From the NCBI GenBank assembly GCA_030146045.1, contig JASLDG010000006.1, positions 1-61,466 of the forward strand: 61,466 bases of DNA, given 5' to 3'. The notes beneath the pieces are model-generated. The model saw only the letters and a list, made by a program, of their open reading frames with translations. It had not been told where the DNA came from and made no database searches. Origin of the DNA: Candidatus Saccharimonadales bacterium (GTDB lineage Bacteria; Patescibacteriota; Saccharimonadia; Saccharimonadales; Saccharimonadaceae). Position numbers and translations under genes: made by a program. Shown here piece after piece: positions 1 through 47,201 of this stretch. Position 1 is the stretch's first letter, and each line of letters begins with the position of its first letter.

Positions 1-1906
1 CGCCCATACACTTCGGAGTACCACCATCGTTCATACAGTATGTACCTCCAAGAATAGAACCGACAAACGGTATTGCCCATGCGCCGTCATCTGTTCCGAT
101 CGGGTCAACATCTTGCACTAAGCGGAATGGCGCATTCATAACATAAGATGAGGCAATCGACAGGAGTCCAGAGTAAGCAGGAGTGAATCCCATACAACCC
201 AAGTTACGCTGTGATGGAGCGCACACAAAGTCACCACCTAAACTAAACCCTTCAGCATCAAGACCATTGTCGAATTTATAGCCAACACCCCCAGGGAATG
301 CCTTACCGAAGAGATCACCAGGCAATATCGACTGCCATGCCGCAACATTTGGCACATACCCTGTGTAATTAAACGGTTGCACCGTCAAGGTCATCACTGG
401 TGTACCCCAATTAAATGGCAGAGCAATCCCCCAACAGTAGAGTTTCCCGTCGGTTATCGCACAGCTGTAGTGCGATCCTGCACCGATACGATCAAGTTTA
501 CGTCCGTACAATTTACCTGTATCGCTATCAGGTGCAACGATTGTTGGCGGAAAAAGTCCGAACCAGCCGCTACTACCTGGTCCCGGTACACCAACCGTAT
601 TGAAGATTGGGTCTACAAATGCACCGACCGCGTTCTTGGCAGTAGATGCCACCATACTGACAACTGGAGCAGCTTTCCAGTTCTCATATCCAAAAGGAGG
701 TGCTGGATTTGGCATGATTGCAGATGTACCAATGGCACCGGTTGAACTACCGAGCGTAAACGGTAGATTGTCGCAAAACCTCTGCTCGCCACCCAAGAAC
801 ATATTAAGAAACTGGAGCCAGTTCAGTGGATTGATAATCGCCTGGAAAATATTTGGCTTTTGCATCGTACAGTTCAGTGACCCTACTTGCTGGTAATCAT
901 TACCGCCCCAGCAATATGGTGCACCATCAGTCACTGCACAACTGTGCTGGAACACCGGTATAAACTGTGGCGCTGGCGTATTAGAAGGAGACGTACCTAT
1001 ATCGGTCACGAGACGGCCCTTCAATGTCAACCCCCAGTTTGCCGATGGGTCAACTTGATTGCCGACCCGTTGCGGCACAGCAACGCCCATCCCGCGCACC
1101 GCCTCATTACCCTGATTCTTAATCTGACCCATCAACGAGTCGGTCGCAAGCATGCTACCATTGCCGACCTGTCCGGCCAAATTATTACCCCAGCAATATG
1201 GCTCACCATCAGCAATCGCACAGGTGGTGGAATCGCTCACGGCGACCTTGGAAATAAATTTATTGCCTAATGCTGTTACCTGCGTCGGTACATTACGTTG
1301 CGTAAAATCACCCGTACCAAGCATACCCCATCCATTTGGACCCCAGCAGTACAGCTTACCGTTGTTAATCGAACATACATGAGCGTCAGCCTTTACATCA
1401 GTTGCAACCGCGCCCTTGGCATTGGCCATCACTTTGACAGTAGGCTGAATAATCACAACACGTGAGACCTGGTATGGATCGCCGACTTTGTTTCCACCCT
1501 GCATTCGCTGTACTGACCCGATTACCGTGGCCTTCATTGTATCTGGCCCATATTCTTCTGCACGAACAGGGGGCTTCACTTCGAAAGTTGACTGCCACGA
1601 GCCGTCGGACGCTTCTGTCACATAGGGCATACCACTTCCTGTTGCCGCAGTACCATCACACCTTTTATCTGGCGTCAGACTCGCAGTCCAGAGGTGACCT
1701 GATTCCATACGCACACACCCAGTCGCAAGCGACACCCCTGCTTGTGCGGCCTCTCGTGCGATCTGATTAAATGAAGTATCATTAAACTGCTGGCTTGAGT
1801 TAGTCACAAGTGAATAAAGCGTCACTGATGCAGTCATGATGCCTACACCTAGCAAAATAATTGCCGGTAAAATAAATCCTGTCTGTTGCGTTCGTCGTAT
1901 TTTCAT
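1..1906 (-). CDS. Giant pilus-associated protein, copy 2: PilX-like N-terminal helix plus RCC1-like propeller repeats (C-terminus lies beyond the window start)
   Basis: Missing from the ORF track because it stays open to nt 1. Manual translation from the ATG at 1906-1904 (1 nt after the stop of 1908..2774) gives MKIRRTQQTGFILPAIILLGVGIMTASVTLYSLV...QIAREAAQAGV. Blades follow: CSINNGKLYCWG, CAIADGEPYCWG, CAVTDGAPYCWG, CAITDGKLYCWG. No stop in 635 codons. Colinear with 3253..6333 (RIGAGSHYSCAITDG vs RIGAGGHFSCAITEG; NLGCMGFTPAYSGL vs NFNCMGYTPAFSGL). Confidence 0.8.
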   Translation of the reverse strand, partial: MKIRRTQQTGFILPAIILLGVGIMTASVTLYSLVTNSSQQFNDTSFNQIAREAAQAGVSLATGCVRMESGHLWTASLTPDKRCDGTAATGSGMPYVTEASDGSWQSTFEVKPPVRAEEYGPDTMKATVIGSVQRMQGGNKVGDPYQVSRVVIIQPTVKVMANAKGAVATDVKADAHVCSINNGKLYCWGPNGWGMLGTGDFTQRNVPTQVTALGNKFISKVAVSDSTTCAIADGEPYCWGNNLAGQVGNGSMLATDSLMGQIKNQGNEAVRGMGVAVPQRVGNQVDPSANWGLTLKGRLVTDIGTSPSNTPAPQFIPVFQHSCAVTDGAPYCWGGNDYQQVGSLNCTMQKPNIFQAIINPLNWLQFLNMFLGGEQRFCDNLPFTLGSSTGAIGTSAIMPNPAPPFGYENWKAAPVVSMVASTAKNAVGAFVDPIFNTVGVPGPGSSGWFGLFPPTIVAPDSDTGKLYGRKLDRIGAGSHYSCAITDGKLYCWGIALPFNWGTPVMTLTVQPFNYTGYVPNVAAWQSILPGDLFGKAFPGGVGYKFDNGLDAEGFSLGGDFVCAPSQRNLGCMGFTPAYSGLLSIASSYVMNAPFRLVQDVDPIGTDDGAWAIPFVGSILGGTYCMNDGGTPKCMG

Positions 1907-1907
1907 T

Positions 1908-2774
1908 TTAGCTCTCCCCATTAGTTCGCGTCACTATCACTGAATCCGTCGCTTCAAGTTTTCCCTTTTTAACCGTAATCTGAACTCTTATATATTTCGC
2001 TTTTGAAATATCGTCCGAACTGTTGATCTCTTGTGGCGTGCCGTCAGCTGCATTATTTTCGCGGTAATAAGACACTTTAAATCCCTGAACGTTCTCGAGC
2101 ACTTTTGCATCACGACCTTCACAAATCTTCGTATTATTATACCCTTGCGGACAGGTTTGTTTTGTACCATTCTCTAGATTACTCGCTCCCACGTACGCAC
2201 AAAGGCTCTTTGGCTTTTCATTTGGTCGCGCCGCATCATAATACGGAATACTTCGCCGCCAAAGTACACTATCTTTCACATAATAAACAAACGTATTACG
2301 CATGAAGCTCGTACAGCTACTGTCCGCCCATAAAACCTTGCGCTGTGGATCGTCGATATTATCCCCTTCGTCCGAAACAGTGGTCGCGTATTTTTGATAC
2401 ATCAAAATATTCTTGTCCATATTGTTCCCAAGGAATGTATATGGTGATGTGTCCCATTTTTTCGTCTCAGGACTTGCGAGAGTCGCGCCAGGATTTGTTG
2501 GATCTGGACCCACTTTATCTGTCGTGTCAATCTTAAGGAAGCTCACCGCTAGTACCACATCTTTAGAGACACGTCCAAGCGCGGCCTTGATATCAGTTTG
2601 CTGAACGACCGTCGCCATTTCAGTCGTTTGCGAACGCCAAATTGCATCCATTGGCCCAAACACGAGCGCCATTAAGATACCGGCTACCGCCATGACAATG
2701 AGAAGCTCTACCAAAGTAAAGCCTTTTTGTACGTTAATTAATGTAGGCCGCACGAACAACCGTCTCCGTTTCAT
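1908..2774 (-). CDS. Type IV minor pilin/pseudopilin, PilW-like (module 2)
   Basis: 288 aa. N-terminus ...INVQKG|FTLVELLIVMAVAGILMALVFGP has the prepilin cleavage/methylation motif plus a hydrophobic helix. Paralogue of 6330..7115 (shared GP.DA....S, V.FYVKD..L.RR blocks). Its start overlaps the upstream gene by 41 nt. Confidence 0.75.
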   Translation of the reverse strand: MKRRRLFVRPTLINVQKGFTLVELLIVMAVAGILMALVFGPMDAIWRSQTTEMATVVQQTDIKAALGRVSKDVVLAVSFLKIDTTDKVGPDPTNPGATLASPETKKWDTSPYTFLGNNMDKNILMYQKYATTVSDEGDNIDDPQRKVLWADSSCTSFMRNTFVYYVKDSVLWRRSIPYYDAARPNEKPKSLCAYVGASNLENGTKQTCPQGYNNTKICEGRDAKVLENVQGFKVSYYRENNAADGTPQEINSSDDISKAKYIRVQITVKKGKLEATDSVIVTRTNGES

Positions 2775-3174
2775 ATCTCACCTCAGCCTTGATTAGTATT
2801 GGCGCATTCGCAAGACACCCCTGAGGATAAAACACCAGGAGTCTTTGACTCGTCGTGGATGGTAAATTGGATTTTTCTGGAAGCGTCTGTGGAATAGTTA
2901 CACTCTTACCTGGTGCGTGACTATTGCGCGTTAAATCAGCAACCGCTTGCCCACCGCTCATCTCTGAGCAATCAATACCCCCAGGCAGCTGAGCCTGCTC
3001 TCGGTAGCGACCTACAATCCCTGCGGCGAGATTATTCGCTTCAGCATAGCGTATCGTCTTTACGCGCTGTGTCTGCACTGCTATAAATCCTTGCATTAAG
3101 AATGTAAAGAAGACAGAAAATACAACAATCGCGACAATCGTCTCAACAATAGTAAACCCCTCTTGTTTTCCCAT
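2734..3174 (-). CDS. Type IV minor pilin/pseudopilin, PilV-like (module 2)
   Basis: 146 aa. MGKQEG|FTIVETIVAIVVFSVFFTFLMQGFIAVQTQRV has the prepilin motif. Clear paralogue of 7096..7551. Confidence 0.75.
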   Translation of the reverse strand: MGKQEGFTIVETIVAIVVFSVFFTFLMQGFIAVQTQRVKTIRYAEANNLAAGIVGRYREQAQLPGGIDCSEMSGGQAVADLTRNSHAPGKSVTIPQTLPEKSNLPSTTSQRLLVFYPQGCLANAPILIKAEVRYETETVVRAAYIN

Positions 3175-3212
3175 GTGTATTTTCCTACCCTTAAATACTG
3201 CTTGTGCCTCTG

Positions 3213-3241
3213 ATTATATCGCTCCCCTTGCCATAAAGCAA
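3213..3241 (-). promoter_or_regulatory. Candidate sigma70-type promoter for pilus-tip module 2
   Basis: Minus-strand reading: TTGCTT (3241-3236), 17-nt spacer, TATAAT (3218-3213). It lies about 40 nt upstream of the ATG at 3174. Sequence pattern only. Confidence 0.3.
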
Positions 3242-3247
3242 GGGGAG
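3222..3247 (-). terminator. GC-rich hairpin just after the stop of the 1026-aa gene (possible attenuator between modules)
   Basis: ctccccttgc (3222-3231) pairs perfectly with gcaaggggag (3238-3247) around a 6-nt loop. There is no clear U-tract on the minus strand, so terminator function is uncertain. It overlaps the putative -35. Confidence 0.3.
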
Positions 3248-3252
3248 ATGTA

Positions 3253-6200
3253 CTAGAAGATTGGGCCGCGCTTGAATGGCGTGTCTGTCACATAGTCGTC
3301 AGTTGCCTGAGGTTGCAAGACGGCTCCAGGGGCACTTGCGATGCCGCTCTGGCCGCTTGTCGCATCACCCCAGCACAGGATACGGCCGTTAGCGACACTA
3401 CAGCTCGATCCAAGCCCGGCACTGATAGAAATTGACGCATTGCCACTTGCCGCACCGGTATTGACGACAACTGGACGTAGGCGATCTGTCGTCGCCTGAC
3501 CGTCACCGACACGACCGCTTGCAGCATTGCCCCAGCAATAGATTATTCCCTGAAGAACTGCACAGGCGTGCGCATCACCCACAGCAAGATCATTCGCCTG
3601 CAAACCACCCGCAACACCTGCAACCTTAGTAGGAATCTTGCCATCGGTTGAGCCCGTACCACCAGCTGCATCGGTACCAATCTGGCCATCTGTATTACGG
3701 CCCCAGCAACTCACAAAACTATTGATAACCGCACAGGTAAAGTTATTACCTGCACTGATTTGCGTAAAGGCCGGTGTCAGTTGATTACTATTCACGCCAC
3801 CAGCAGTACCGAGGATAAGCTGCCCGGCACCACCTGTATTTGTATCTCCAAGATTCGTGTTGCGTCCTGTCGCATAGTTTGCGTTCGTACCCCAGCAATA
3901 CCCATTGCCATTCGCGACCGCGCAGGCATGCTCTTTACCCATACTGATTGAGGTCGTCGCCTTGTCAGTCAACCCAGTGACCGGTACCGGAGAAGGGCGT
4001 GTCGTGGTTGAATTGTCACCTATCTGATGACGATTATTCTTGCCCCAGCAATACGCGCGCCCATCAGCGATCGCACACGTCCCTGTGTCACCAGCGCTGA
4101 CATCAGTCACGCGCTTACCCGCAAAAGCCCCGACAAGTGTTGGTACGTTTTTGGAACTAAGCGTACCATCACCAAGCTGACCATCGGTGTTGCGACCCCA
4201 ACAATAGAGCTGTCCGATAGAGATACCACAGGTATGATTTGTACCAGCACTTACTTTGCGGAAGACGCGATCAGCAACAGAGCTGACGATGCGCGGCTGC
4301 TTGACGTTCGTACCGTTTGGCACTGCAGCACCCATGCCGAGTTGCCCGTCATCATTCTTGCCCCAGCAGAATATCTGGCCGTTCACGATGCCACAGCTAT
4401 GACCGCCACCGGTTGAGGCCGAACCATCGGCGGCATAGGTCCCGGGATCAGCCCCGAGTGATCCAATCGATATCTGCGATGCACGATTGACCGTATCGTT
4501 CATACCGCCACCATTGCCAAGAGCACCAGAACCGCCATCAAGTCCCCAGCTAAATACCTGTCCATTCGCAATCATAGTGCCGTACATGCCGCTTGCTGCG
4601 ATTCGCGTTGGCACTTTGCCAGTGAAATCTGGACTCCCCCCTGTCAAAAGAGGGTTGAACTTCGTATTGCCAAAAATTGAGACGCCCGGGTCGGTACCCG
4701 TCGGTGCGCCTTCAATTGACCCAACACAACCGGCATTTCGATTGCTCGTCGTATCGGTTGGTGCTACCGCGCAAAACGTACCAAAGAACCCATTTACCCA
4801 TGGGATAACCTGCGACCATTGCCCATTATCGTGATCAACAACATCATAATTCGACAGAACAGTTACGGGCGCATTCAAGAAGTATGCTGTCAGGAAACTC
4901 GCAAGACCGCTGAATGCCGGTGTGTATCCCATACAGTTAAAGTTCCAGCTCGACATACCACAAGAAATGTCTCCGCTAAAGTTATATGAGGTGGTATCAA
5001 TCGGTTGCGTGTTTGCTCCAACCATTTCATATGGCGTACTTGTGACAGTAAATGGCTTTGGCATACCCCATACCGCCGGCAACCGCATACCCCAGCAGAT
5101 TTGTCGCCCTTCAGTGATCGCGCAACTGAAATGTCCGCCAGCGCCGATTCGGTCAATCTTGTGCCCAAAAAGTTCAGATTGCGTACTCTGCCTGCCGTAT
5201 GGGCTACACCCAAAAATTGGCACACAAAGCTGATTGTTATTATTGTCGTACCCGTAGACTGGTGTCGGCTCTTTGACAAACAATAGGTCTGAAATCGTAC
5301 CAAATGGATTTGTCTGATCGGTATCGCACGGCAACAGCGGCAAACAGACAATGTTGCCCAGTTGATAGTAATCATTACCACCCCAGCAGTACGCCGCCCC
5401 ATCGGTCACTGCGCAGCCATGCCGCATTACTGGCAATGGCTGAGGGAATGGATAATTTTGCGATGAAATCGACAGGTCGGTCACCTTGCGATTCTGCAAA
5501 TCACCCTTCACCTCCACTGGAACATTACTATCAGCATTGGTACCATTACCAAGCAACCCACTGATACCAGCACCCCAGCAGTACGCCTTGCCATCGGCAA
5601 TCGCACAGGTATTCGCATCACTCACGGTTACTTTTGAGACATACTTTCCTGTCAGCGCGCCGCCAACAAGCTTCGGTGAGGCTTCACCGAGCGATACCGT
5701 CCCAAGACCAAGCTCACCGCTTGTATTCTGGCCCCAACACCACAATTTTCCATTTGCAATCGCACAGGTATGCTGGTCGGCACGCACATCGGTTGCGACT
5801 TGTCCGGTTGCCTTATGTAAATAGCCATTACCCGGCTTAAAAACACTTATTTTTGTCGCTTCAATCGTCTTAACTGGTACGCCGGCCTGTAAGAGCTCGA
5901 CTTTACCCTTTGAAACAATCTGGCTCGTCTCAGCATCGTAGGTGCTGCTCTTTGATACCGGTGATGTCACCTCGAACGTCGAACGCCATACATTATCAGA
6001 TGACTGATAGACATACTGCGATGGAGCAGACGGTGAGCCGCTTGTAATTACCACGCCATTACAATCCGTGTTTGGACGCAAAAGCTTTGCACCTTGTATC
6101 CACTCTTTCGTACCTTCGGTCAAGCATCCTGTTGCGTATGCAATCCCCGAACGCGCCGCTTCCTGGGCCATTGTCTGGAAGGATTGGCCGTTTAGCGCCT

Positions 6201-6333
6201 GGCTCGACGATGCAATGACCTGCAAATACAGAGCAATGACAATCGAGATAGCCACGCAGAGCAGGATAGTCGCCGGTAATACATAGGCACGCTCGCCTTG
6301 CTTGCCTGTCATATTCTTGAAATACTCCATCAC
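3253..6333 (-). CDS. Giant pilus-associated protein, copy 1: PilX-like N-terminal helix fused to about 13 RCC1-type propeller blades
   Basis: 1026 aa. N-terminus ERAYVLPATILLCVAISIVIALYLQVIASSSQ...MAQEAARSGI. CWG/SWG/CMG blade signatures at aa 199, 252, 316, 413, 467, 595, 656, 711, 762, 813, 876, 933 and 987, many followed by G.N..GQLG. 4-nt ATGA overlap with the upstream pseudopilin gene. Confidence 0.85.
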   Translation of the reverse strand: MMEYFKNMTGKQGERAYVLPATILLCVAISIVIALYLQVIASSSQALNGQSFQTMAQEAARSGIAYATGCLTEGTKEWIQGAKLLRPNTDCNGVVITSGSPSAPSQYVYQSSDNVWRSTFEVTSPVSKSSTYDAETSQIVSKGKVELLQAGVPVKTIEATKISVFKPGNGYLHKATGQVATDVRADQHTCAIANGKLWCWGQNTSGELGLGTVSLGEASPKLVGGALTGKYVSKVTVSDANTCAIADGKAYCWGAGISGLLGNGTNADSNVPVEVKGDLQNRKVTDLSISSQNYPFPQPLPVMRHGCAVTDGAAYCWGGNDYYQLGNIVCLPLLPCDTDQTNPFGTISDLLFVKEPTPVYGYDNNNNQLCVPIFGCSPYGRQSTQSELFGHKIDRIGAGGHFSCAITEGRQICWGMRLPAVWGMPKPFTVTSTPYEMVGANTQPIDTTSYNFSGDISCGMSSWNFNCMGYTPAFSGLASFLTAYFLNAPVTVLSNYDVVDHDNGQWSQVIPWVNGFFGTFCAVAPTDTTSNRNAGCVGSIEGAPTGTDPGVSIFGNTKFNPLLTGGSPDFTGKVPTRIAASGMYGTMIANGQVFSWGLDGGSGALGNGGGMNDTVNRASQISIGSLGADPGTYAADGSASTGGGHSCGIVNGQIFCWGKNDDGQLGMGAAVPNGTNVKQPRIVSSVADRVFRKVSAGTNHTCGISIGQLYCWGRNTDGQLGDGTLSSKNVPTLVGAFAGKRVTDVSAGDTGTCAIADGRAYCWGKNNRHQIGDNSTTTRPSPVPVTGLTDKATTSISMGKEHACAVANGNGYCWGTNANYATGRNTNLGDTNTGGAGQLILGTAGGVNSNQLTPAFTQISAGNNFTCAVINSFVSCWGRNTDGQIGTDAAGGTGSTDGKIPTKVAGVAGGLQANDLAVGDAHACAVLQGIIYCWGNAASGRVGDGQATTDRLRPVVVNTGAASGNASISISAGLGSSCSVANGRILCWGDATSGQSGIASAPGAVLQPQATDDYVTDTPFKRGPIF

Positions 6334-7115
6334 ACCCCCGTTCCATTCACTCGTATCATACGCAATTTACTCGATGATGTCATGATATTCGATCCGCTGC
6401 CGTCACTGAGCTGTATCTCAACTTCAACCGATGTTGCCGCACTTGCGTCGCTCGGGTACGGCATTTCATTACCGTCACTTCCGTAGTACGTAACGGCGAA
6501 TTTTTTAACTCCGCGAGCTATCACCGCGTCACTCCCCTGGCATTCGGGCTGGCTAGCCCCTGGTGCGCAAGTCTGATGCATACCATTGGAAAGAGCTGAC
6601 TGACTCGAGCACCGACTACTAGGAGAAGCATCTGGCGACGAACGACGATACAGCGTGCCGTCTTTTACATAGAACACCATCGTATTCTCAATCGGCGTCG
6701 CGCAATCCGCCAGCATCAATATTACACGTGCAGGATTATCAACTGTATCACTGGACTCACCCATATTCGTTGCGTATCGGCCGATAATCAGCACGCGATT
6801 ATCAGCACCGCTCCCTTCGTATGTGTACGGCGCAGTATTCCACTTCGACCCCAACCCCGTCGGACCAACCGGGTCACTTTCGTTCGTTGTGTAAAAACCT
6901 CCAGCAAGTGCAACATCGCGCTCTATCATACGCAGCGATGCTCGCGCATCATACACTTGAGTCATCTTTTTCGTATCAGTCACACTCGAGGTATACAGCG
7001 CATCGAGCGGCCCAAACAAAATCATCATCATAATCGCCGCCACGAACATCACAATCAACAGCTCAACAATCGTGAAGCCATGCATCGCACGCGCTTTAAT
7101 TAACATATTCGACAT
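6330..7115 (-). CDS. Type IV minor pilin/pseudopilin, PilW-like (module 1)
   Basis: 261 aa. ...ARAMHG|FTIVELLIVMFVAAIMMMILFGPLDALYTSS has the prepilin motif. Overlaps neighbours by 20 nt (5') and 4 nt (3'). The start could instead be the internal ATG at 7106 or 7085. Confidence 0.75.
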   Translation of the reverse strand: MSNMLIKARAMHGFTIVELLIVMFVAAIMMMILFGPLDALYTSSVTDTKKMTQVYDARASLRMIERDVALAGGFYTTNESDPVGPTGLGSKWNTAPYTYEGSGADNRVLIIGRYATNMGESSDTVDNPARVILMLADCATPIENTMVFYVKDGTLYRRSSPDASPSSRCSSQSALSNGMHQTCAPGASQPECQGSDAVIARGVKKFAVTYYGSDGNEMPYPSDASAATSVEVEIQLSDGSGSNIMTSSSKLRMIRVNGTGV

Positions 7116-7551
7116 GTGTCACCTTCTCTGCATCATATTTCACAACCGACCGCAGCAACGCCGGCATTTGCGCGCCACATCCTCGCGGATACACAACCTC
7201 TATATAGTAGTCAGTCGACGAAGGAAGCGCCGTCCCCGTCAGTGAGCCGCCAATCTGCGCCTTGCCAATAACCGACCCCGGGGCAGTGGTATTGTAGGTA
7301 TAATTGTTTGGATTAGATGAGTCGGTGACTGCATTGTTACACGCAACAGTACTCGGTAAACTTAATTTTTTGGTATATTTCTTGAGATTAGAAGTAGCGA
7401 GGTCATGCGCGTCTGACAAGCGAACCACCTGGACACGCTGTGATGTCGCCGCAATAAATCCCTGAAAAAGCAGACCTACAAAAATCCCGACCACAACTAT
7501 TGTCACGATCATCTCGACAATGGTAAAACCAGCGCTTGCCCTATACCCCAT
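7096..7551 (-). CDS. Type IV minor pilin/pseudopilin, PilV-like (module 1)
   Basis: 151 aa. MGYRASAG|FTIVEMIVTIVVVGIFVGLLFQGFIAATSQRV has the prepilin motif. Confidence 0.75.
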   Translation of the reverse strand: MGYRASAGFTIVEMIVTIVVVGIFVGLLFQGFIAATSQRVQVVRLSDAHDLATSNLKKYTKKLSLPSTVACNNAVTDSSNPNNYTYNTTAPGSVIGKAQIGGSLTGTALPSSTDYYIEVVYPRGCGAQMPALLRSVVKYDAEKVTHVEYVN

Positions 7552-7595
7552 AACTTATGGGTAAGTATAGCACAAGCATAATGTCTATAAAAAGC

Positions 7596-9149
7596 CTATA
7601 ATTCGTCTTTTTTGTTGCTAATAAATCGTGACCACTGTTGTACTAAACGCAGCACTGTTTTAAGTGGTAGTTCGATCAGCATATCAAGAATAAGCGCGAC
7701 AATATTCACCTTAGAATATTTTTCACTAATCCAGCGTCCTACTACCACAAATGGCAGATACAAGAAATCACGCATAAGGGCGATACCGTTTTGCTCGGCA
7801 TCAATCGTCTCGACTTCGCGGATAAGACGACTCAATCGGAAACCAAGGAAGCTTGCCGTCGAAAGGAACAAGAAAAAGATAATCAAATGCAGCGCTGAGA
7901 AGCCAATTGACCACAAGCCCCATGCAACGCCGCCAAATACCAAGATAAACAAACATGCATACAATATATTAAAGGCAACCGGATAGGCACTCTGTTCTTT
8001 GAGCGATGCCGAAACTGCGATGACTGGCCGCTGCGATGAATACAGGAGCGACTCCATTTGATCCATCAGTGCCGTTGTATTGACTCGCTTTGGCAGCACC
8101 AGTGTCAAGCGTAGCAAGATCATGAAAAGCGGTGGGAACAGCAAGTTGACGACCAGCGGTATCCACAGAATCTCTCCATGCATAATATAGTCGTACGGTA
8201 CTTCGAGCCCAATCCCAATCAAAAACTTGGTGATAATCAAGAAAACAACGCTCTTTACAATACCACGATTGATCTTTTCGTTGAGTTGACGATATTCATC
8301 ATCAATCTGCGTCTCGTATGCAGCCATAAATTTATTATGGTCACTCAAGATCGCCGCTACATCGGGCAGTTCATCAACCATTCGCCACAACACGCGCAGT
8401 GCCGCACCCCGTCGGTTGACGACACGCGCTACCTTGTCCGCTGCCGACGTAAGCAGCAGTTTATCCAGGTGCATATTAAGCTGCGTAAACTGTTCAGTTT
8501 GCTCGGGTGCCACCTGATAACGCTCAAGCAGTGCTGATCGAATCGTGGCATTGTCGGACTTTAAAAGCTGGCGATGCACCGCGATAAATATACAGGTATC
8601 ATGGTTTTCGGCACCTTCTGTCGCTGGAATGATGTCGGTAAAATAGCGATACGCAAACTGTGCAAATGCCGCTCGCTTGCTATGGTCGGCAAACACATTT
8701 TCTACCCGTACAGCCAGTGTATCGATCACCCAGTCGTCAGCATGTGCTACATTGCCGACACGCACAAGCTGCTCGTAGGCCGTAAAATATTGCGCTGCCA
8801 ACGCATTAATTGCCGCGAGCTGAACATGAGTCACCGAATCATTCGCCAAATAGCCGGCAAACGTCAGCTCGACAGCGAGTTCTTCGCCGCTCTCGCCTGC
8901 TCGTTTGGCATCACGCGTCAAAAAAAGCCGTTTATAAAAACGACGAATGGCGCGCTGCAACAGCAAGTGCTCTTCGGTGTATTCTGCGGCATTGCGAAGC
9001 TGCTCGTAGGCCGCCGTCAGTGTTCGCCCAGCACCAACGATATGGATTTTCTCAGCATGTTTGCGCTCTTCGTCGCGCTGAGCCATAGCAGCATCAGCAT
9101 GCCGGAGCATGTCGATGAATTGGCGACCGATAGGAGTAACGTCTTTCAT
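7596..9149 (-). CDS. Multi-pass membrane protein of unknown function with a large helical cytoplasmic N-domain
   Basis: 517 aa. The first ~300 aa are hydrophilic and helical. The C-terminal ~200 aa contain several hydrophobic segments (VVFLIITKFLIGIGL, ILWIPLVVNLLFPPLFMILLRL, AFNILYACLFILVFGGVAWGLWSIGFSALHLIIFFLFL). It ends 44 nt upstream of pilus-tip module 1 on the same strand. Confidence 0.65.
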   Translation of the reverse strand: MKDVTPIGRQFIDMLRHADAAMAQRDEERKHAEKIHIVGAGRTLTAAYEQLRNAAEYTEEHLLLQRAIRRFYKRLFLTRDAKRAGESGEELAVELTFAGYLANDSVTHVQLAAINALAAQYFTAYEQLVRVGNVAHADDWVIDTLAVRVENVFADHSKRAAFAQFAYRYFTDIIPATEGAENHDTCIFIAVHRQLLKSDNATIRSALLERYQVAPEQTEQFTQLNMHLDKLLLTSAADKVARVVNRRGAALRVLWRMVDELPDVAAILSDHNKFMAAYETQIDDEYRQLNEKINRGIVKSVVFLIITKFLIGIGLEVPYDYIMHGEILWIPLVVNLLFPPLFMILLRLTLVLPKRVNTTALMDQMESLLYSSQRPVIAVSASLKEQSAYPVAFNILYACLFILVFGGVAWGLWSIGFSALHLIIFFLFLSTASFLGFRLSRLIREVETIDAEQNGIALMRDFLYLPFVVVGRWISEKYSKVNIVALILDMLIELPLKTVLRLVQQWSRFISNKKDEL

Positions 9150-10555: not shown

Positions 10556-11020
10556 ATGAATCTTCAACAAAAAATCAAGAAAGCACAGAGTGAACGCGGT
10601 TTCACCATCGTCGAGCTCTTGATCGTGATCGTCGTCATTGGTATCTTGGCAGCGATTGTGATTGTGGCATTTACCGGCGTGCAAAAACAAGCAAAAATCG
10701 CAGGCTATAAATCTGACGCAAATGGTATCGTAAAGGTTGCAGAAGCCATAAATGCAGACAAGCAGAGTTATCCGGTAGGTGCAGATGCTGCGGCGACAAA
10801 AACACTTTACGAGGCTACGACAAATACAGTTAAGCTTCCGCCAAAGGTTCGTATCACCGCCGTCACTTCAGCACCAACAATCACTGAAGCTAACGGCCCA
10901 ACTGTAGATAGCACCACTGGAGTAAAAACATATACCGTATGGGCATGTACTAACGGTGCAAATGTCTACTTCTGGGATGGATCAGCAGTTGTTATCAATA
11001 AAGCTGGTGACGGCTGCTAA
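10556..11020 (+). CDS. Type IV pilin (candidate major pilin)
   Basis: 154 aa. ...KAQSERG|FTIVELLIVIVVIGILAAIVIVAFTGVQKQAK. Short, monocistronic, followed by a strong terminator. Confidence 0.85.
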   Translation: MNLQQKIKKAQSERGFTIVELLIVIVVIGILAAIVIVAFTGVQKQAKIAGYKSDANGIVKVAEAINADKQSYPVGADAAATKTLYEATTNTVKLPPKVRITAVTSAPTITEANGPTVDSTTGVKTYTVWACTNGANVYFWDGSAVVINKAGDGC

Positions 11021-11157: not shown

Positions 11158-11526
11158 TCAGCCCAACGAGCAGTAGCGCCGACCGATGTCACACGCGTAA
11201 TCGCGGCTTGCCCATGAGTTGTTCACCGTAGGGCCGTAGTTATCGGTCAGCCAGGCGGACGGAGAGCCGCCACAGCCCACGTTGACTCGGTAGTCATTGG
11301 AGTTGAAGTTATAACTCCAGTTAGCCGTGCCGTAGCCGGTCGATGTACGACTAGCCCAACCCGAATTGCCACTCTGCGTGACGTAGATACCAACGACATC
11401 TCCGCCAGAGCAGATGACCGTTCCGTAGTAGACCGTTGCATGAGCCGGAGCGGCCACTGCAACCGTCGCACCTGTTGCCACAACGACCCCGGTAAGGACG
11501 CTGACAACACGCTGCTTGATCTTCAT
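11158..11526 (-). CDS. Small secreted cysteine-containing protein, unknown function
   Basis: Start moved to the ATG at 11526 (AAGGAG 5 nt upstream). MKIKQRVVSVLTGVVVATGATVAVAAPAHA looks like a signal peptide with an AxA site. The mature ~92 aa has 4 Cys and is G/S/N/Y/W-rich. Confidence 0.6.
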   Translation of the reverse strand: MKIKQRVVSVLTGVVVATGATVAVAAPAHATVYYGTVICSGGDVVGIYVTQSGNSGWASRTSTGYGTANWSYNFNSNDYRVNVGCGGSPSAWLTDNYGPTVNNSWASRDYACDIGRRYCSLG

Positions 11527-11624
11527 ACGTCTCCTTGGTAGAACGAGTGTTATTCGAACGAACAACCTTTTGATCGTATCAATTTCCGAAATACAAATCA
11601 AGGATAATAATGAGGTTTCTTATC

Positions 11625-38173: not shown

Positions 38174-39955
38174 ATGCGTATATCAGACGGAACCATCGAG
38201 AAGCTCCTATTACAGGGAGATCACGTCACCGACGAACAACTTTCTCAGCTGAAAGCAGAGGGGGCACGTTCAAGGCGTCCCTTGCAAGATCTTGTTATCC
38301 AAGAAGATATTATGAGCGAGGCTGCCCTTACTCAGCTCTTTGCCGAATATGCCGACCTTCCTTTTATCGTCCTCGATCCTAAGGATATACCACCTGACGT
38401 ACTCATGCACATCCCTGAAAACATCGCTCGGCAGTATAATGCCGTGCTATTTCGGATTGACGAAGATGGTCTCCAGCATCTGGCCATGGATGATCCTGAC
38501 GATGTCCAGGCAGTTGACTTTATCCAAAAGCAAATTGGCGATAACACTAAGATTTACATCGCACCGCATGATAATATTCTCGCTGCTCTCGATAACTATC
38601 GCGGCGATGTCGACAAAGAGTTGAACGATGTTATTGATATCCAGCGTGAAGAAGATACCGCCAATGACAAGGTGAGCGATGAGGATGTTGCCGAGAATTC
38701 ACCAATTGCTCAGACCATCAACCTATTACTTGAGTATGCAATTCGTTCGCATGCCAGTGATATTCATATTGAACCTCGAGAAGATTTTGTCCAGATCCGG
38801 TATCGTATTGATGGTGTTCTGCACGAAGTTAATCGCTTGCCGCGCAATGTTCATGCCGCGTTGATCAGTCGCCTTAAAATTCTGTCCAATCTTAAGATCG
38901 ATGAACGTCGTGTACCACAAGATGGCCGCTTTAAAATTAAAGTCGGCGGCAAACAATACGCGCTGCGCGTCAGCACCTTGCCGATCGCCGATGGCGAAAA
39001 GGTTGTCATGCGTATCCTCGACGAGTCCAACCAAGCTGTTACTCTTGACCAGCTCGGATATTGGGGACATTCATTTGAAGTCATCACCAAGGCTATGCAT
39101 GAACCGCATGGCATGATCCTCGTCACCGGCCCAACCGGCTCCGGTAAATCAACAAGCTTGTTTAGCGTTCTAACGCAGCTTAATCATCCGGACGTCAATA
39201 TCTCCACTATCGAGGACCCAGTTGAGTATAAAATTCCAGGCGTTAACCAAACCCAAACCAACGTTAAGGCTGGTATGACCTTTGCCTCTGGCCTCCGCGC
39301 GTTGCTGCGTCAGGACCCAAACATTATCATGGTCGGTGAGATTCGTGACGGCGAAACAGCCAACTTGGGCGTGCAGGCGGCTTTGACGGGACATTTGGTT
39401 TTCAGCACCCTTCACACCAACAATGCTGCCACCACCTTGCCACGTTTACTTGATATGGAAATTGAGCCATTTTTGATTGCAAGTACCGTACGCGCTGTCG
39501 TCGGACAGCGTCTCGTGCGTCGCATTGACCGCGAAACACGCATCGCCTATGCGCCAACCGAAGAGGAAAAACAGGCATTTATCCAAATGTTCAATCTTCG
39601 TGAAGGTCAAACGTTCAAGCACATCCATGAGCTTGAAAAACAAGCGGCGGCCGCAGGTGTCGGAGGTGACACACCTCTCAGTACGACCGAAACAGATATT
39701 AAAGTGCTCTACAAACCTGCCGAGACTGAAGATGTTAACGGCAAGCATGACGGCTTTAAGGGGCGTGTCGGCATCTACGAAGTACTCGACAATACACTTT
39801 CTATCCAAAAAATGATTACCAGCAATGCAACAGCTAACCAAATCCAGGAACAAGCAATCAAAGAGGGGATGATTACAATGCAGACAGATGGGCTCGTCAA
39901 GGCACTTCGAGGTGAGACAACAATAGAAGAAATACTGAGGGTAACAAGGGAATAA
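38174..39955 (+). CDS. pilB: Type IV pilus assembly ATPase (GspE/PilB family)
   Basis: 593 aa. GspII_E N-domain, Walker A GPTGSGKSTSLF, MVGEIRD, HLVFSTLHTN. Confidence 0.92.
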   Translation: MRISDGTIEKLLLQGDHVTDEQLSQLKAEGARSRRPLQDLVIQEDIMSEAALTQLFAEYADLPFIVLDPKDIPPDVLMHIPENIARQYNAVLFRIDEDGLQHLAMDDPDDVQAVDFIQKQIGDNTKIYIAPHDNILAALDNYRGDVDKELNDVIDIQREEDTANDKVSDEDVAENSPIAQTINLLLEYAIRSHASDIHIEPREDFVQIRYRIDGVLHEVNRLPRNVHAALISRLKILSNLKIDERRVPQDGRFKIKVGGKQYALRVSTLPIADGEKVVMRILDESNQAVTLDQLGYWGHSFEVITKAMHEPHGMILVTGPTGSGKSTSLFSVLTQLNHPDVNISTIEDPVEYKIPGVNQTQTNVKAGMTFASGLRALLRQDPNIIMVGEIRDGETANLGVQAALTGHLVFSTLHTNNAATTLPRLLDMEIEPFLIASTVRAVVGQRLVRRIDRETRIAYAPTEEEKQAFIQMFNLREGQTFKHIHELEKQAAAAGVGGDTPLSTTETDIKVLYKPAETEDVNGKHDGFKGRVGIYEVLDNTLSIQKMITSNATANQIQEQAIKEGMITMQTDGLVKALRGETTIEEILRVTRE

Positions 39956-39959
39956 TATT

Positions 39960-41186
39960 ATGCCACGATACAAATACATAGCAACAACAGAAAATGGCGC
40001 ACCTGCGGACGGTATGCTTGACGCCCCTGATCAGGGAAGCGCCGTTGAACTTCTTAAGAAACAGCATCTTCGACCCTTGAGCGTCACTCTTGACATCGGC
40101 AAAAAAGGCTTTAGTCTTGACAGCCTTCTTGGCGGCAAAAAAGTCAAGTCTGACGACCTTGTTATCTTTACGCGCCAGCTCAGTGCCATGGTCAGCGCCG
40201 GCGTCCCCCTCCTCCGCTCGCTCAGTTCCCTCGAACAGCACTCGGAAAGTCCAGCACTCAAGGCAATTCTTGTCGATATCATCAAAGACGTCGAGGGCGG
40301 TGCACCGCTCGCCGATTCGCTCGGCAAACACCCTGAAACCTTCAGCGACGTCTACGTCAACATGGTGCGTGCCGGTGAAGCTGCCGGTATTCTTGACGAA
40401 ATTCTCAAGCGCCTCGCCCTCCAGCAGGAAAAGAATGCCACTATCCGCAAAAAAGTCAAAGGCGCCATGACCTACCCGATGGTGCTGATCGTCATTACAG
40501 TCATTGCCTTCTTCGGCCTGATGCTTTTCGTCATTCCGCAAATCGGCAACATCCTGACCAGCCTCGGCGGCCCAGACGCAGAACTTCCATTCATTACTAA
40601 GATGATGCTCGGTTTCAGCTCTTTCATGTTAAGCTATTGGTTCATTATCATTCCTGCTTTTATCGGTGGCACCTGGGGACTACTCCGCTATATTAAAACC
40701 CCTGGCGGCAAGCGCCAGTTCCATAAGTTCGTCTTAAAGGTTCCTGCGGTCAACGGCGTCATCCAAAAGGTTATCATCGCGCGATTCGCCCGTACCTTCT
40801 CGTCACTTGCTGGCGCCGGTGTTTCAATCATTGAGACGCTAACCGTGACCGCACATGCACTCGGTAATACCGTCTACGAGCAGGCGCTACTTGACTCAGT
40901 CGAGCAGATCAAGAACGGTAAGCAGCTCTCACGCGTACTCGAAGAAGATAACCTCTTCCCCGCAATCGTGTCACAAATGCTCGCCGTCGGTGAAGAGACC
41001 GGACAAACTGACACCGTTCTGGTAAAGGTGGCTGAATTTTATGAGGAAGAGGTCGATACTGCAATTAACAGCCTCAGCTCCATTATCGAGCCTGTCATGA
41101 TCGTTATTATGGGCTCAGTTGTTGGTCTTGTTGCGGCCAGCGTCATGGGGCCAATTGCAAGTCTTGCTCAAAACATTAAGGGCTAG
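39960..41186 (+). CDS. pilC: Type IV pilus platform protein (GspF/PilC family)
   Basis: 408 aa. Two GspF repeats and three TM segments. Confidence 0.9.
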   Translation: MPRYKYIATTENGAPADGMLDAPDQGSAVELLKKQHLRPLSVTLDIGKKGFSLDSLLGGKKVKSDDLVIFTRQLSAMVSAGVPLLRSLSSLEQHSESPALKAILVDIIKDVEGGAPLADSLGKHPETFSDVYVNMVRAGEAAGILDEILKRLALQQEKNATIRKKVKGAMTYPMVLIVITVIAFFGLMLFVIPQIGNILTSLGGPDAELPFITKMMLGFSSFMLSYWFIIIPAFIGGTWGLLRYIKTPGGKRQFHKFVLKVPAVNGVIQKVIIARFARTFSSLAGAGVSIIETLTVTAHALGNTVYEQALLDSVEQIKNGKQLSRVLEEDNLFPAIVSQMLAVGEETGQTDTVLVKVAEFYEEEVDTAINSLSSIIEPVMIVIMGSVVGLVAASVMGPIASLAQNIKG

Positions 41187-41238
41187 GCGTAAGCAGAATG
41201 ACATGCTATACTAGCATCAATACAACAACGTGGGCATC

Positions 41239-42291
41239 ATGAATAGATTATTTTACCAAGACAAACCAATTATCGGCGTCGATATTAGCAGCACGGACCT
41301 CAAGGTCATGTCGATTGACGCCAAGCATCATATCGTACAAGGTTATGGTAACCTTGACCTCGATCCACTACGTATCAAAAAAGCGTTTGACGAAGAAGAC
41401 ACTTACCTTTCCGATAGCCTCGTTGGACTTCTTGATAAAAAACTTGTAGGATCACTCGCCAGCGACCAGGTCGTGCTTGGTATCCCGACCGTTCGTACAT
41501 TCTCGCGTACCTTTACTGTTCCGCTCTCTGCCGAGAAAACACTTAAGGACGCAGTTGCCATAGAGGTATCGCAATATATCCCAATTCCGCTCCCCCTCCT
41601 ATACGTTGATTACGAAATTATCGAGCGAGACGACCAGAATTTAACCGTCATTATGAGCGCCGTACCTCGCAAGATTGTCGACACTGCTATTGCCGCATGT
41701 GAAACGGCAGGCCTTGCTGTCAACATGATTGAACCTGCTATTAACGCCGTTGCACGTGTTCTTAAGGCGACCGAAGATGGTCATCTTCCGACAGTGATCG
41801 TCGACATTGGCGCTGCCAATACCGATATTGCCGTTCTTGATGGTTCAATCCGTATTACTGGGGGCACCGGTACTGGTGGCAATACATTTACTCTTGATAT
41901 TGCCAAAAAACTGAGCGTCACACTTGAAAACGCACACCAGCTGAAGGTCTTGAACGGCCTTGCGCCGGGCGCACGCCAAGAAAAAATTACCGCAGCTTTG
42001 CGCCCATCACTTCGTAGTATTATTACCGAAACCCGAAAGGTTATCCGCTACTACAATGAACGCCTTAGCAATAACCGTCGACTTGAACAAGTCCTGATCG
42101 TTGGTAGCGGCAGTAACGTACCTGGTATTGGTGAGTACTTTACGAACGAACTCGTGATGCCAGCTCGCACAGCTAATCCTTGGCAGCAACTTGACTTCGG
42201 TAGCCTTCCGCAACCCGCTAAGCAATTTCGCTCACGCTACATTACCGTAGCAGGTCTCGCGAACGTGAACAAAGGGGAGATGTGGCAATGA
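41239..42291 (+). CDS. pilM: Type IV pilus assembly protein PilM (actin-like ATPase fold)
   Basis: IIGVDISSTDLKVM..., IVDIGAANTDIAVL, LIVGSGSNVPGI. The track ORF starts at the GTG at 41230; ATG at 41239. Confidence 0.85.
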   Translation: MNRLFYQDKPIIGVDISSTDLKVMSIDAKHHIVQGYGNLDLDPLRIKKAFDEEDTYLSDSLVGLLDKKLVGSLASDQVVLGIPTVRTFSRTFTVPLSAEKTLKDAVAIEVSQYIPIPLPLLYVDYEIIERDDQNLTVIMSAVPRKIVDTAIAACETAGLAVNMIEPAINAVARVLKATEDGHLPTVIVDIGAANTDIAVLDGSIRITGGTGTGGNTFTLDIAKKLSVTLENAHQLKVLNGLAPGARQEKITAALRPSLRSIITETRKVIRYYNERLSNNRRLEQVLIVGSGSNVPGIGEYFTNELVMPARTANPWQQLDFGSLPQPAKQFRSRYITVAGLANVNKGEMWQ

Positions 42292-42842
42292 TCAATTTAT
42301 TACCAGACGAATATAAAAAAGATCTTCGTTCGGCACGAATGAATGTCGCCCTTCTTCGCTATAATATGTTCGCTATCATTGCGGTCGTTGTCCTTGGGGT
42401 TGCATGGGGCATGTTCTCGGTTTCGCTCAATCTCACCGAAGGTAATGCCAAGGCCGAAAGTAAGAAAAACCAAGATGATGCACGTCAATATGATACCGCA
42501 AAGAAAGAATGGGAAGACTACAATAAAAATCTCGCATTTGCAAAGCAAATCTTAGGAGACCAAGTAAGCTACACCCAAGCAATCGTCCGCGTCACGGAAC
42601 TGATGCCAAAAAACACCGTGCTCGATAATCTTAATTTATCAGCACAAGATTTCGGCAATCAAGTCGTACTCTCTGCGCACGCTAAAACACGTGACGATGC
42701 ACTTAAAATTAAAGAGAGTTTCGAAAAGTCAGACTTCTTCTCTAATGTATTTTTCCAAAGCATCACCGAAACAGATGGGTCGAAGAGTGATTATCCGGTC
42801 GGTGTCAATATCAGTGTCAAAATTAACAAGGTGAAAAACTAA
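42282..42842 (+). CDS. pilN: PilN-like (fimbrial assembly) protein
   Basis: 186 aa. INLLPDEYKK start, single TM helix, 10-nt overlap with pilM. Confidence 0.7.
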   Translation: MAMINLLPDEYKKDLRSARMNVALLRYNMFAIIAVVVLGVAWGMFSVSLNLTEGNAKAESKKNQDDARQYDTAKKEWEDYNKNLAFAKQILGDQVSYTQAIVRVTELMPKNTVLDNLNLSAQDFGNQVVLSAHAKTRDDALKIKESFEKSDFFSNVFFQSITETDGSKSDYPVGVNISVKINKVKN

Positions 42843-43483
42843 TGGTCAACAAAAAGTCAGCCTCAGGAATTACCGCACCAAAGCTTCGACTTATCTTAAT
42901 TGCGACGATTGTTCTCTTGATCATCGCAGGAGGTTTTGGGTTCGCGTTTGCTCGTGAACAGCTTGTAAAGCGTGCAGCCGACGTTGCCATCGCGACTGCC
43001 TCTGAGAAAGAAAGTAAAAAGAATAAAGATGCGCTTCGTAGCATTGAATCAAAACTAAGTGAAAATCGTGACGAAGTAAAACGAACGAGCGAAATTGTTG
43101 CTCCTCTTGATAATTTTGAGTACCAGGTTCGTATTATCAAGGACGTACAAGCATATGCAGCTAAGGCAGGTGTCACCATTCGTGGCTTCTCATTCACAAG
43201 CGATGTTGCCGCAGCAGGCTCGGCGTCAGGAACAACGTCTGGCTCAGCGGCTGCAGCAAGCGGTACTGCGGCTACGTCACCTGCCATCAGCGGTCTTAAG
43301 AAAGTGACGACCACCGTAGAGCTCGAGTCGCCGATTGGCTACAAGAATGTCATGAACTTCCTCTATTATCTTGAAAATAACCTAACAAAGATGCAACTAC
43401 AAGGTGTCTCACTCACGCGTGATCCGGCAAAAAATGAGATTACCGCTGGAGCGCTTAATCTGGAGGTCTACGTAAAGCAATGA
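42842..43483 (+). CDS. pilO: PilO-like protein
   Basis: 213 aa. TM helix, coiled coil and a C-terminal alpha/beta domain. TAATG overlap with pilN. Confidence 0.55.
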   Translation: MVNKKSASGITAPKLRLILIATIVLLIIAGGFGFAFAREQLVKRAADVAIATASEKESKKNKDALRSIESKLSENRDEVKRTSEIVAPLDNFEYQVRIIKDVQAYAAKAGVTIRGFSFTSDVAAAGSASGTTSGSAAAASGTAATSPAISGLKKVTTTVELESPIGYKNVMNFLYYLENNLTKMQLQGVSLTRDPAKNEITAGALNLEVYVKQ

Positions 43484-46730: not shown

Positions 46731-47201
46731 ATGAAGCAACCTTCTCGACAGTCACAAGCAGGCTTTACCGTTATCGAACTCATCGTTGTTATTATTATAG
46801 CCGCAGCTGCCAGCATTCTATTCTTTATCCAGAACAACAATCTACGCGCTGCCAAACTCGACACTCAGCGTAAAACTGCGATTAATGCTATGTACTATGA
46901 CTTAGAGAAAGTCTTTTACCCTAAAAACGGCTACTATCCAGTTGAGCTCAGCAGCGAAACACTCACGGCAGTCGATCCAGACCTTCTCGTTGACACTAAC
47001 GGCAATAAGATTGACGAAAAACTCGATCTTTCGGGTCTGAGCGACGAAGAGAAAAAATCAATGGAATCGGTTGACACACACCTCTCCGAATACACATATG
47101 AGCCGATCAATTGCTCAACCGACGGCAAATGTAAGAGCTACACCCTACGCGTCAGCCTTACTAATGAAGGTGACTACATCAAAAAGAGTCTTCACAACTA
47201 G
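46731..47201 (+). CDS. Pilin-like protein with a prepilin N-terminal motif
   Basis: 156 aa. ...SQAG|FTVIELIVVIIIAAAASILFFIQNNNLRAAK. Confidence 0.75.
   Translation: MKQPSRQSQAGFTVIELIVVIIIAAAASILFFIQNNNLRAAKLDTQRKTAINAMYYDLEKVFYPKNGYYPVELSSETLTAVDPDLLVDTNGNKIDEKLDLSGLSDEEKKSMESVDTHLSEYTYEPINCSTDGKCKSYTLRVSLTNEGDYIKKSLHN

Follow-up and report, generated by a model that had tools for sequence, protein, structure and literature searches.

Six co-oriented genes at one end of the contig JASLDG010000006.1, from the Candidatus Saccharimonadales assembly GCA_030146045.1, raise the question of what kind of surface structure they serve and why they come in two sets of three. The window analysed here is one whole NCBI contig of 61,466 base pairs (bp), hence the last gene of the second set is cut by the contig end. 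A preliminary description had read the genes as two tandem copies of a pilus-tip module, each composed of a PilV-like and a PilW-like minor pilin and a giant protein that joins a PilX_N domain to an RCC1-type propeller, and had taken this module to be undescribed. Our answer is that the set is not a new system but a variant, larger and duplicated, of the host-binding system known from Nanosynbacter lyticus TM7x. With a probability of roughly 0.6, we read the six genes as forming two paralogous modules of minor pilins, each of which would prime and tip the second type IV pilus (T4P-2), a non-retractile one, of a Saccharibacterium of the clade G1 type. The genes are referred to as V1, W1 and X1 in the first module and V2, W2 and X2 in the second, V being the small pilin, W the medium one and X the giant (Table 1).

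The counterpart belongs to the TM7x type IV pilus 'locus three', described as pilA2, pilX2, pilW2, pilV2 and pilZ2 (Grossman et al., bioRxiv 2024, ISME J 2025, PMC12206443), with the run pilZ2-pilV2-pilW2-pilX2-pilA2 corresponding to TM7x_02975-02995 (PMC12206443; PMC13194787). Without pilX2 or pilA2, host binding falls from 10.6% to about 4.6-4.8% of host cells, and both deletion mutants lose in competition against another Saccharibacterium, their competitive fitness being abolished; deletion of pilB2 removes the thin pili, and deletion of pilV2 or pilW2 gives no binding phenotype (PMC12206443). PilX2, with a published length of 576 amino acids (aa) (PMC13194787), has an N-terminus in the shape of a lollipop, no PilD site being predicted, and a hepta-bladed RCC1 propeller (PMC12206443). 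It has been called a putative tip-associated adhesin, and its purified head binds TLR2 (Nat Commun 2026, PMC13194787). The gene had no TXSScan or BLAST match in the published TM7x work; the name pilX2 rests on structure and position in TM7x, and the same holds in the window.

A metagenome collection was searched with that part of the published PilX2 downstream primer which matches the genome, and TM7x-type contigs were recovered. One of them, L079, carries murB, pilZ2 (163 aa), pilV2 (154), pilW2 (275), pilX2 (576), pilA2 (142), glyA and a gene for a MurA-like enzyme with a helix-turn-helix (HTH) domain, its PilX2 having the same length as the published one. The window X protein and this PilX2 share 30% identity (E-value 2e-35), the N-terminal domain included, W1 and PilW2 27% (E 2e-15), V1 and PilV2 26% (E 4e-11), and the PilA2-like pilin of the window and PilA2 43% over the N-terminal half (E 1e-10). 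The module is therefore homologous, gene for gene, to published pilV2-pilW2-pilX2 genes for which knock-outs exist (PMC12206443, PMC13194787), so that the claim of an undescribed module falls; the biological idea that came with it, a pilus tip for host or surface recognition, is essentially right, as the homologous TM7x pilus module has been shown experimentally to mediate host binding.

The two systems have in common the V-W-X order and coupling, an X protein made of a hydrophobic helix, a small beta domain and RCC1 blades, without the glutamate at position 5 (Glu5), the murB/glyA neighbourhood, and a machinery of pilB2, C2, M2, N2 and O2 with recAX and an orphan pilin and no pilT. Co-oriented genes for a small pilin, a medium pilin and a large RCC1 protein, in that order, are found in both window modules, in L079 and in many metagenome-assembled genomes (MAGs). 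There are also differences: PilX2 of TM7x has 576 aa and one 7-bladed propeller, whereas X1 has 1026 aa and the X2 orthologue described below 1256 aa, with about 14 blades; TM7x has a single module where the window has a tandem duplicate, and identity is only 26-30%; compared with TM7x, the window V-W-X genes flank murB on its other side and are encoded by the opposite strand, with pilA2 not adjacent; and the FimT-like pilin PilZ2 is present in TM7x, whereas no pilZ2-like pilin stands by the modules in the window.

Linkage to T4P-2 is seen in the rest of the contig. The window order murB, pilin, glyA, HTH-MurA is the TM7x-type neighbourhood, and its PilA2-like pilin lies between murB and glyA as in TM7x, 3 kb from the modules. 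About 31 kb from the V-W-X genes stand pilB2, pilC2, pilM2, pilN2, a probable pilO2, recX, a NUDIX gene, recA and an orphan pilin gene. Neither pilT nor pilD is found in the window.

Concerning the modules themselves, the six minus-strand open reading frames (ORFs) are all present where they had been placed (ORF list and translations), as are the G/FT[IL]VE motifs of V1, W1, V2 and W2 and the tight packing. V1 and W1 overlap by 20 nucleotides (nt; read from the sequence), W1 and X1 by 4, or by 1 if X1 begins at the ATG one codon downstream of its GTG, which gives the 1025-aa NCBI protein P0001; V2 and W2 overlap by 41 nt, and a 1-nt gap separates W2 from X2. The starts of W1 and W2 are preceded by purine runs resembling Shine-Dalgarno sequences. 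That V1, W1, V2 and W2 are prepilin-type proteins is borne out by profile searches: their N_methyl (PF07963) scores of 24.2, 22.8, 24.1 and 34.4 bits, respectively, lie above the Pfam gathering cutoff of 21.2, and all four exceed the TIGR02532 cutoff of 16.3. Their more specific identity as PilV and PilW finds no such support. The Pfam and NCBIfam models concerned (PilV, PilW, GspH/I/J, ComG, HpsB/C) give matches below threshold only, namely T2SSJ at E 0.017 and gspJ at 0.05-0.07 (W2 has matches to both), type_IV_pilV at 0.008, HpsB/HpsC and ComGE/F; the names are positional or size labels. Profiles of V and W searched against PDB sequences give significant matches only to generic pilin N-helices. 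Four cysteines of W1 are conserved in an alignment of 21 homologues: C138 and C183 are invariant, and C169 and C192 almost invariant.

As had been proposed, both giants are propeller proteins of the RCC1 kind. X1 matches RCC1 (PF00415, 220 bits), RCC1_2 (PF13540, 107 bits) and WD40_RLD (PF25390, 257 bits) with E-values of 3e-66 to 3e-76, and the X2 fragment matches RCC1 with 54.8 bits. An AlphaFold2 (AF2) monomer model of X1, made from an alignment with 36 homologues, reaches a predicted local distance difference score (pLDDT) of 83.7 and a predicted template modelling score (pTM) of 0.83, and consists of a 55-residue helix (18-72), a small antiparallel 3-stranded sheet (116-174) and then beta-blades up to the C-terminus. 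Foldseek aligns this model, over about 380 columns, with the 7-bladed RCC1 propellers UVR8, RPGR, HERC2 and RCC1 (E down to 1e-30, template modelling scores 0.75-0.90, those for UVR8/RCC1 being 0.87-0.90). The homologue alignment shows 13 invariant cysteine pairs in C-x8-C-W-G hairpins, that is 13 blades, to which our own reading of the sequence adds a 14th, without cysteines, at 589-597; the two halves of the array are related to each other with E 1e-26. With about 14 blades and related halves, the X1 head is read as two 7-bladed propellers, and we infer that the giants carry a double RCC1 head in place of the single one of TM7x. For X2 a full-length orthologue, P0012 (1256 aa), is available on the related metagenomic contig L001, 82-96% identical by region; compared with X1, this type has about 270 extra residues spread over both blade arrays. 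Neither Pfam nor NCBIfam gives a PilY1-family match in the window proteins, the Pfam model of the PilY1/PilC propeller being PF05567; the propeller here is of the RCC1 type and is fused to a pilin-like module.

What precedes the blades is less easily named. The preliminary description had the propeller fused to a PilX-like helix bearing a PilX_N domain: the 55-residue N-terminal helix and its fusion to RCC1 blades stand, the PilX_N identity is not borne out, neither giant matching the Pfam model, and 'PilX' is thus a positional label. N_methyl and TIGR02532 likewise find no match in the X proteins. The N-terminal motif is G-[YF]-[IL]-L-P-A-T-I-L-L, with no Glu at +5, and is accompanied by an invariant Cys70-Cys91 pair. 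The motif G/A-[FY]-[IVL]-L-P-A stands where the small pilins have G-F-T-I-V-E, and a profile-profile alignment (hhalign) puts the G-F-I-L-P-A of X in register with the G-F-T-I-V-E of V, with Ala for Glu5 (probability 56%, E 1e-4). In the AF2 models the domain is a lollipop of helix and beta-sheet.

An exhaustive HMMER search with a profile of this N-terminal domain yields 854 representative clusters, 781 of them at E <= 1e-10, and in the best 150 of the 854 matches the domain is always N-terminal. Among 70 sampled family members (266-903 aa) the head is RCC1 in 57, a ricin-type lectin in 8, a phage tail collar/Gp10_C domain in 4 and CBM_4_9 in 2, with PA14 or other propellers also seen; five proteins with collar-domain heads were obtained by a word-indexed search with the same profile. 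Such non-RCC1 heads on a PilX2-type N-domain occur in other Patescibacteria (e.g. P0121-P0123, P0140, P0143), and ricin lectin, CBM_4_9, PA14 and phage tail-collar domains are receptor- or glycan-binding modules. The X N-domain looks like a general adaptor for receptor-binding heads, and the family like one of modular tip adhesins. RCC1 giants are also encountered elsewhere: TM7i has one of 1330 aa, P0014 (UTX51066.1), whose gene is flanked by that of a glutaredoxin and by the ATP synthase operon (L081, CP075337.1 469803-493795). There are no pilin genes nearby in that neighbourhood, and P0014 was rejected as a cultured comparator for this reason.

The equivalent proteins of the two modules are, as claimed, clear but diverged paralogues: V1 and V2 share 37% identity (E 1e-31, the alignment originally quoted being reproduced), W1 and W2 36% (E 7e-55), and X1 and X2 34% across the 635 residues that X2 offers for comparison (E 2e-96). 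Recent gene conversion between the modules, or recombination of cassettes, was considered and rejected, since DNA repeats are limited to the blade motif, with 74-76% identity over at most about 75 nt. A survey of relatives, suggested at the outset, finds the V-W-X module with an RCC1 X protein of about 950-1250 aa in many Saccharibacteria MAGs, with order and tight coupling strictly kept and with linkage to pilin genes. Tandem pairs occur in the window, in L001/L002 (the end of X1, then V-W-X1256), in L003 (V141-W257-X981-V169-W266-X1152), in L005 and in L011; L004, L006-L010, L014 and L058 have a single module. In rough neighbour-joining trees the copies from the window, L001 and L003 fall into groups according to their position, hence the duplication predates the split of these three and both copies have been retained. 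Conservation of the pair thus extends to at least two related metagenomic lineages; although the copies are only 34-46% identical, each has kept its position in the window, L001/L002 and L003. The two W copies of L005 are sisters, which suggests that its tandem pair arose in a separate duplication event.

The short region between the modules contains an 11-bp GC-rich hairpin directly after the X1 stop and, about 40 nt before V2 begins, a perfect TATAAT. The hairpin folds with -23.4 kcal/mol (z -2.6), is kept in L001/L002 with one compensating G-U change, and is absent in L003. It was rejected as an intrinsic terminator, as it has no T-run and the terminator scan made no call. At the level of consensus, the hairpin and the TATAAT hint at partly independent expression of the second module, which the element might insulate or separately promote.

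Table 1. Positions in the window of the two modules, their parts and the T4P-2 genes.
Feature	Position (nt)	Strand	Remarks
Promoter-like site TTTATA-16-TG-TATACT	7564..7591	minus	13 nt upstream of V1 start; consensus match only
V1, small minor pilin, PilV2-like	7096..7551	minus	151 aa, G/FTIVE; N_methyl; homology to V2 and TM7x-type PilV2
W1, medium minor pilin, PilW2-like	6330..7115	minus	261 aa, G/FTIVE; N_methyl; homology to W2 and TM7x-type PilW2
X1, tip-adhesin candidate, PilX2-like	3253..6333	minus	1026 aa, GTG start; RCC1 matches
X1 N-terminal helix and small beta-sheet	5794-6333	minus	residues 1-180; AF2 model
X1 RCC1 blade array A	4639-5793	minus	residues 181-565
X1 RCC1 blade array B	3256-4638	minus	residues 566-1026
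Inter-module element	3213..3247	minus	11-bp GC-rich hairpin (3222-3247), then TATAAT (3213-3218); from the sequence
V2, small minor pilin, V1 paralogue	2734..3174	minus	146 aa, G/FTIVE; N_methyl
W2, medium minor pilin, W1 paralogue	1908..2774	minus	288 aa, G/FTLVE; N_methyl
X2, second PilX2-like RCC1 giant, N-terminal 635 residues	1..1906	minus	635 codons, open at contig end; RCC1 matches
Probable major pilin, PilA2-like	10556..11020	plus	154 aa; N_methyl; homology to PilA2; murB-pilin-glyA synteny
T4P-2 assembly machinery	38174..43483	plus	T2SSE, T2SSF, PilM_2 and PilN matches; layout of TM7x 'locus two'
pilB2	38174-39955	plus	
pilC2	39960-41186	plus	
pilM2	41230-42291	plus	
pilN2	42282-42842	plus	
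Probable pilO2	42842-43483	plus	
Orphan pilin	46731..47201	plus	156 aa, GFTVIE; next to recA-NUDIX-recX; PilJ-like position of TM7x locus two

Some neighbouring genes deserve a brief mention. A 517-aa protein without a Pfam family is encoded 44 nt upstream of V1 (7596-9149, minus strand), with a C-terminal half that is hydrophobic as judged from the translation; homologues of 37-79% identity are found near the V-W-X module in L003, L011, L051, L058, L030 and L040, in varying orientation. Between the PilA2-like pilin and glyA lies an ORF of 147 aa (11158-11601, minus strand), apparently for a small Cys-rich protein with a putative signal peptide at the N-terminus, which has no Pfam match and for which tblastn finds no counterpart in the fetched loci, the TM7x-type contigs included. 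The product of the gene at 13128-14657 (plus strand) has an HTH_3 DNA-binding domain at its N-terminus and is otherwise a MurA-like enzyme of the EPSP_synthase family; for a regulator domain to be joined to a cell-wall enzyme is unusual, and the gene is found at the same position in L079 (6564-8087).

The mechanism we propose is modelled on the GspI-J-K and PilV-W-X(-Y1) priming complexes, in which a subunit without Glu5 caps the fibre (PMC7541494). V and W of each module keep Glu5 and the giant X does not; the three would pack via their N-terminal helices at the PilC2/PilM2N2O2 platform and so nucleate assembly. X would be the terminal subunit, like GspK or PilX, with two stacked 7-bladed RCC1 propellers as a distal head. 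PilB2 would then polymerise the PilA2-like major pilin beneath, pushing the head to the filament tip, where it would bind a ligand on the surface of the host bacterium and provide long-range tethering. For the use of more than one tip there is a precedent in Myxococcus xanthus, where three paralogous minor-pilin/PilY1 clusters serve one type IVa pilus machine (Treuner-Lange et al. 2020, PMC7541494). By analogy, the presence of two intact cassettes of ancient divergence beside a single machinery set suggests two alternative tips on one machine; given that both modules are old, have stayed intact and are conserved together, the cell would most likely make two kinds of T4P-2 tip with different binding specificities.

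Other known systems resemble the modules in part. The tip of the type II secretion pseudopilus, GspI-GspJ-GspK, is likewise a small-medium-large trio of pilin-like proteins, the largest of which lacks Glu5 and caps the fibre; the window has 146-151 aa, 261-288 aa and then a large protein. That trio functions in secretion, not adhesion, the insertion of GspK is an alpha-domain and not a propeller, and no above-threshold sequence match to it is found in the window (T2SSJ and gspJ, E 0.017-0.07). The Myxococcus xanthus clusters share with the window several paralogous tip or priming sets and a PilX without Glu5; PilX and GspK lack this residue and cap the tip, PilX contacts the distal adhesin, and the complex, having primed extension, remains at the tip (PMC7541494). 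Unlike the window, with three genes per module and RCC1 fused to the subunit in the PilX position, each of these clusters has four minor pilins and a separate PilY1-type propeller with a vWA domain; they are also dispersed, in a diderm with a secretin, whereas the window modules are tandem. Streptococcus sanguinis PilB is similar in that a pilin module bears a bulky fused functional domain with a role in adhesion, and differs in its grafted domain, in its canonical prepilin motif and in showing no homology to the X N-domain (PMC8179133).

It should be noted that several observations weigh against the tip-module interpretation. The putative -1 position of X1 (codon 16, 6286-6288) is Ala and not Gly, the residue that aligns with the glycine of the prepilin cleavage site and is kept by X2 and by more than 90% of the family members. 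PilX_N (PF14341) is unmatched by either window giant at E <= 0.1, and is matched, weakly, by 1 of 24 N-domains of relatives (E 0.005) and by 1 of 70 family members (E 7e-4). The X N-domain profile gives no pilin match among PDB sequences, and Foldseek with the isolated N-domain model gives nothing significant (best E 0.15). V and W, too, reach the PilV, PilW, GspI and GspJ models only below threshold, and no further prepilin ORF, such as a fourth minor pilin of the FimU/PilZ2 type, adjoins either module. PilX2 of TM7x has no predicted PilD site and the pilX2 mutant keeps its thin filaments (PMC12206443), hence X is not strictly needed for priming in TM7x. Placing X in the filament is a matter of interpretation in TM7x as well, and a membrane-anchored adhesin is possible; RCC1 giants such as TM7i P0014 occur in Saccharibacteria outside pilin contexts. 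Finally, the two-propeller arrangement is drawn from blade counts and a monomer AF2 model, and the separate expression of the modules from consensus-level hints (hairpin, -10 box).

Part of these observations would be accommodated if the giants were membrane-anchored surface adhesins, with an uncleaved signal-anchor helix holding the double RCC1 propeller, and V and W ordinary co-transcribed minor pilins. The missing PilD site and the persisting thin pili in TM7x (PMC12206443), the Ala at -1 in X1, the want of a PilX_N, N_methyl or Foldseek pilin match in X, and the stand-alone RCC1 giants of Saccharibacteria all fit such an arrangement. It agrees poorly with a V-W-X order and a tight coupling from which the many MAGs do not depart, with an N-domain that is in register with the prepilin motif and has the lollipop shape of helix and beta-sheet, with the loss of Glu5, a hallmark of the tip subunits GspK and PilX (PMC7541494), and with the binding and competition phenotypes shared by the TM7x pilX2 and pilA2 mutants (PMC12206443), and we regard it as quite unlikely. 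The tip-module reading, in turn, could apply differently to each module. As TM7x has two pilus machines and a V1-W1-X1 set of its own with a different head (PMC12206443), as the window is only the part of the genome seen, and as recA/recX lie in the T4P-2 locus, the window modules might serve different filaments (T4P-2 versus T4P-1 or a competence-type pseudopilus), or else co-assemble into one larger tip. However, they stand together near the T4P-2 genes and resemble each other and TM7x V2/W2/X2 more closely than would be expected of a T4P-1 set, the trees show lineage-specific duplication of one module, and the head of TM7x X1 is a jelly-roll, not RCC1 (PMC12206443), which makes this still less likely.

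The least likely, in our estimation, is that the duplication brings no binding specialisation at all, being redundant or in the course of losing one copy. All six ORFs are intact save for the contig-end cut of X2, the copies have been kept by position in the window, L001/L002 and L003 at the divergence given above, X2 is longer by about 270 residues gained in both blade arrays, and tandem pairs exist in other lineages, of which at least that of L005 looks like a separate event; these facts argue against such redundancy, in favour of which stand the many relatives with a single module (L004, L006-L010, L014, L058) and the TM7x pilV2 or pilW2 deletions without a binding phenotype (PMC12206443). 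Two T4P-2 tip modules, probably of differing specificity, remain our preferred explanation.

Outside Patescibacteria the nearest relatives of the heads are in Actinomycetota loci (L012, L016-L020, L022, L024, L028, L032); these proteins have about 1010-1230 aa and 12-14 C-x8-C-W-G blades, the scan patterns being biased towards this motif. Most of them share the N-terminus RRGLRYLP...LVWQQQATLASYVDVE, presumably a signal anchor of the alternate/SipW type. The secreted RCC1 proteins of Propionicimonas, Glaciihabitans and others (L012, L016-L020, L024, L028) resemble the giants in their 14-blade C-x8-C-W-G array and in their length of about 1000 aa, and by tblastn they match X1 residues from about 176 to 1010 with a best E of 1e-73, the identity of 29-41% referring to the best segment only. 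They differ in having no pilin-like N-domain and no adjoining pilin genes, and in bearing the signal-anchor-type N-terminus and an extra domain. Actinobacteria are known hosts of cultured Saccharibacteria, thus a capture of the head by horizontal transfer is conceivable. Taken together, these data could be extended to a picture, doubtful as a whole, in which a swappable pilus-tip cassette sets host range: the PilX2-type N-domain would be a universal adaptor for grafted heads (single or double RCC1, ricin lectin, CBM, tail-collar), duplicated V-W-X cassettes would diverge so that one T4P-2 machine carries two tips with different host specificities, and the double RCC1 propeller may come from Actinobacteria, the host phylum.

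Host recognition and attachment by the ultrasmall Patescibacteria pose an open problem, and PilX2 of TM7x is currently the best candidate for the adhesin that recognises the host bacterium. The present analysis shows that the family to which it belongs greatly exceeds the one published example in size and modularity, with about 850 sequence clusters and several head types, and that the double-propeller form is common in it. In some lineages two complete, diverged tip cassettes have been stably maintained next to each other, and these duplicated cassettes are concrete, testable candidates for determinants of host range.

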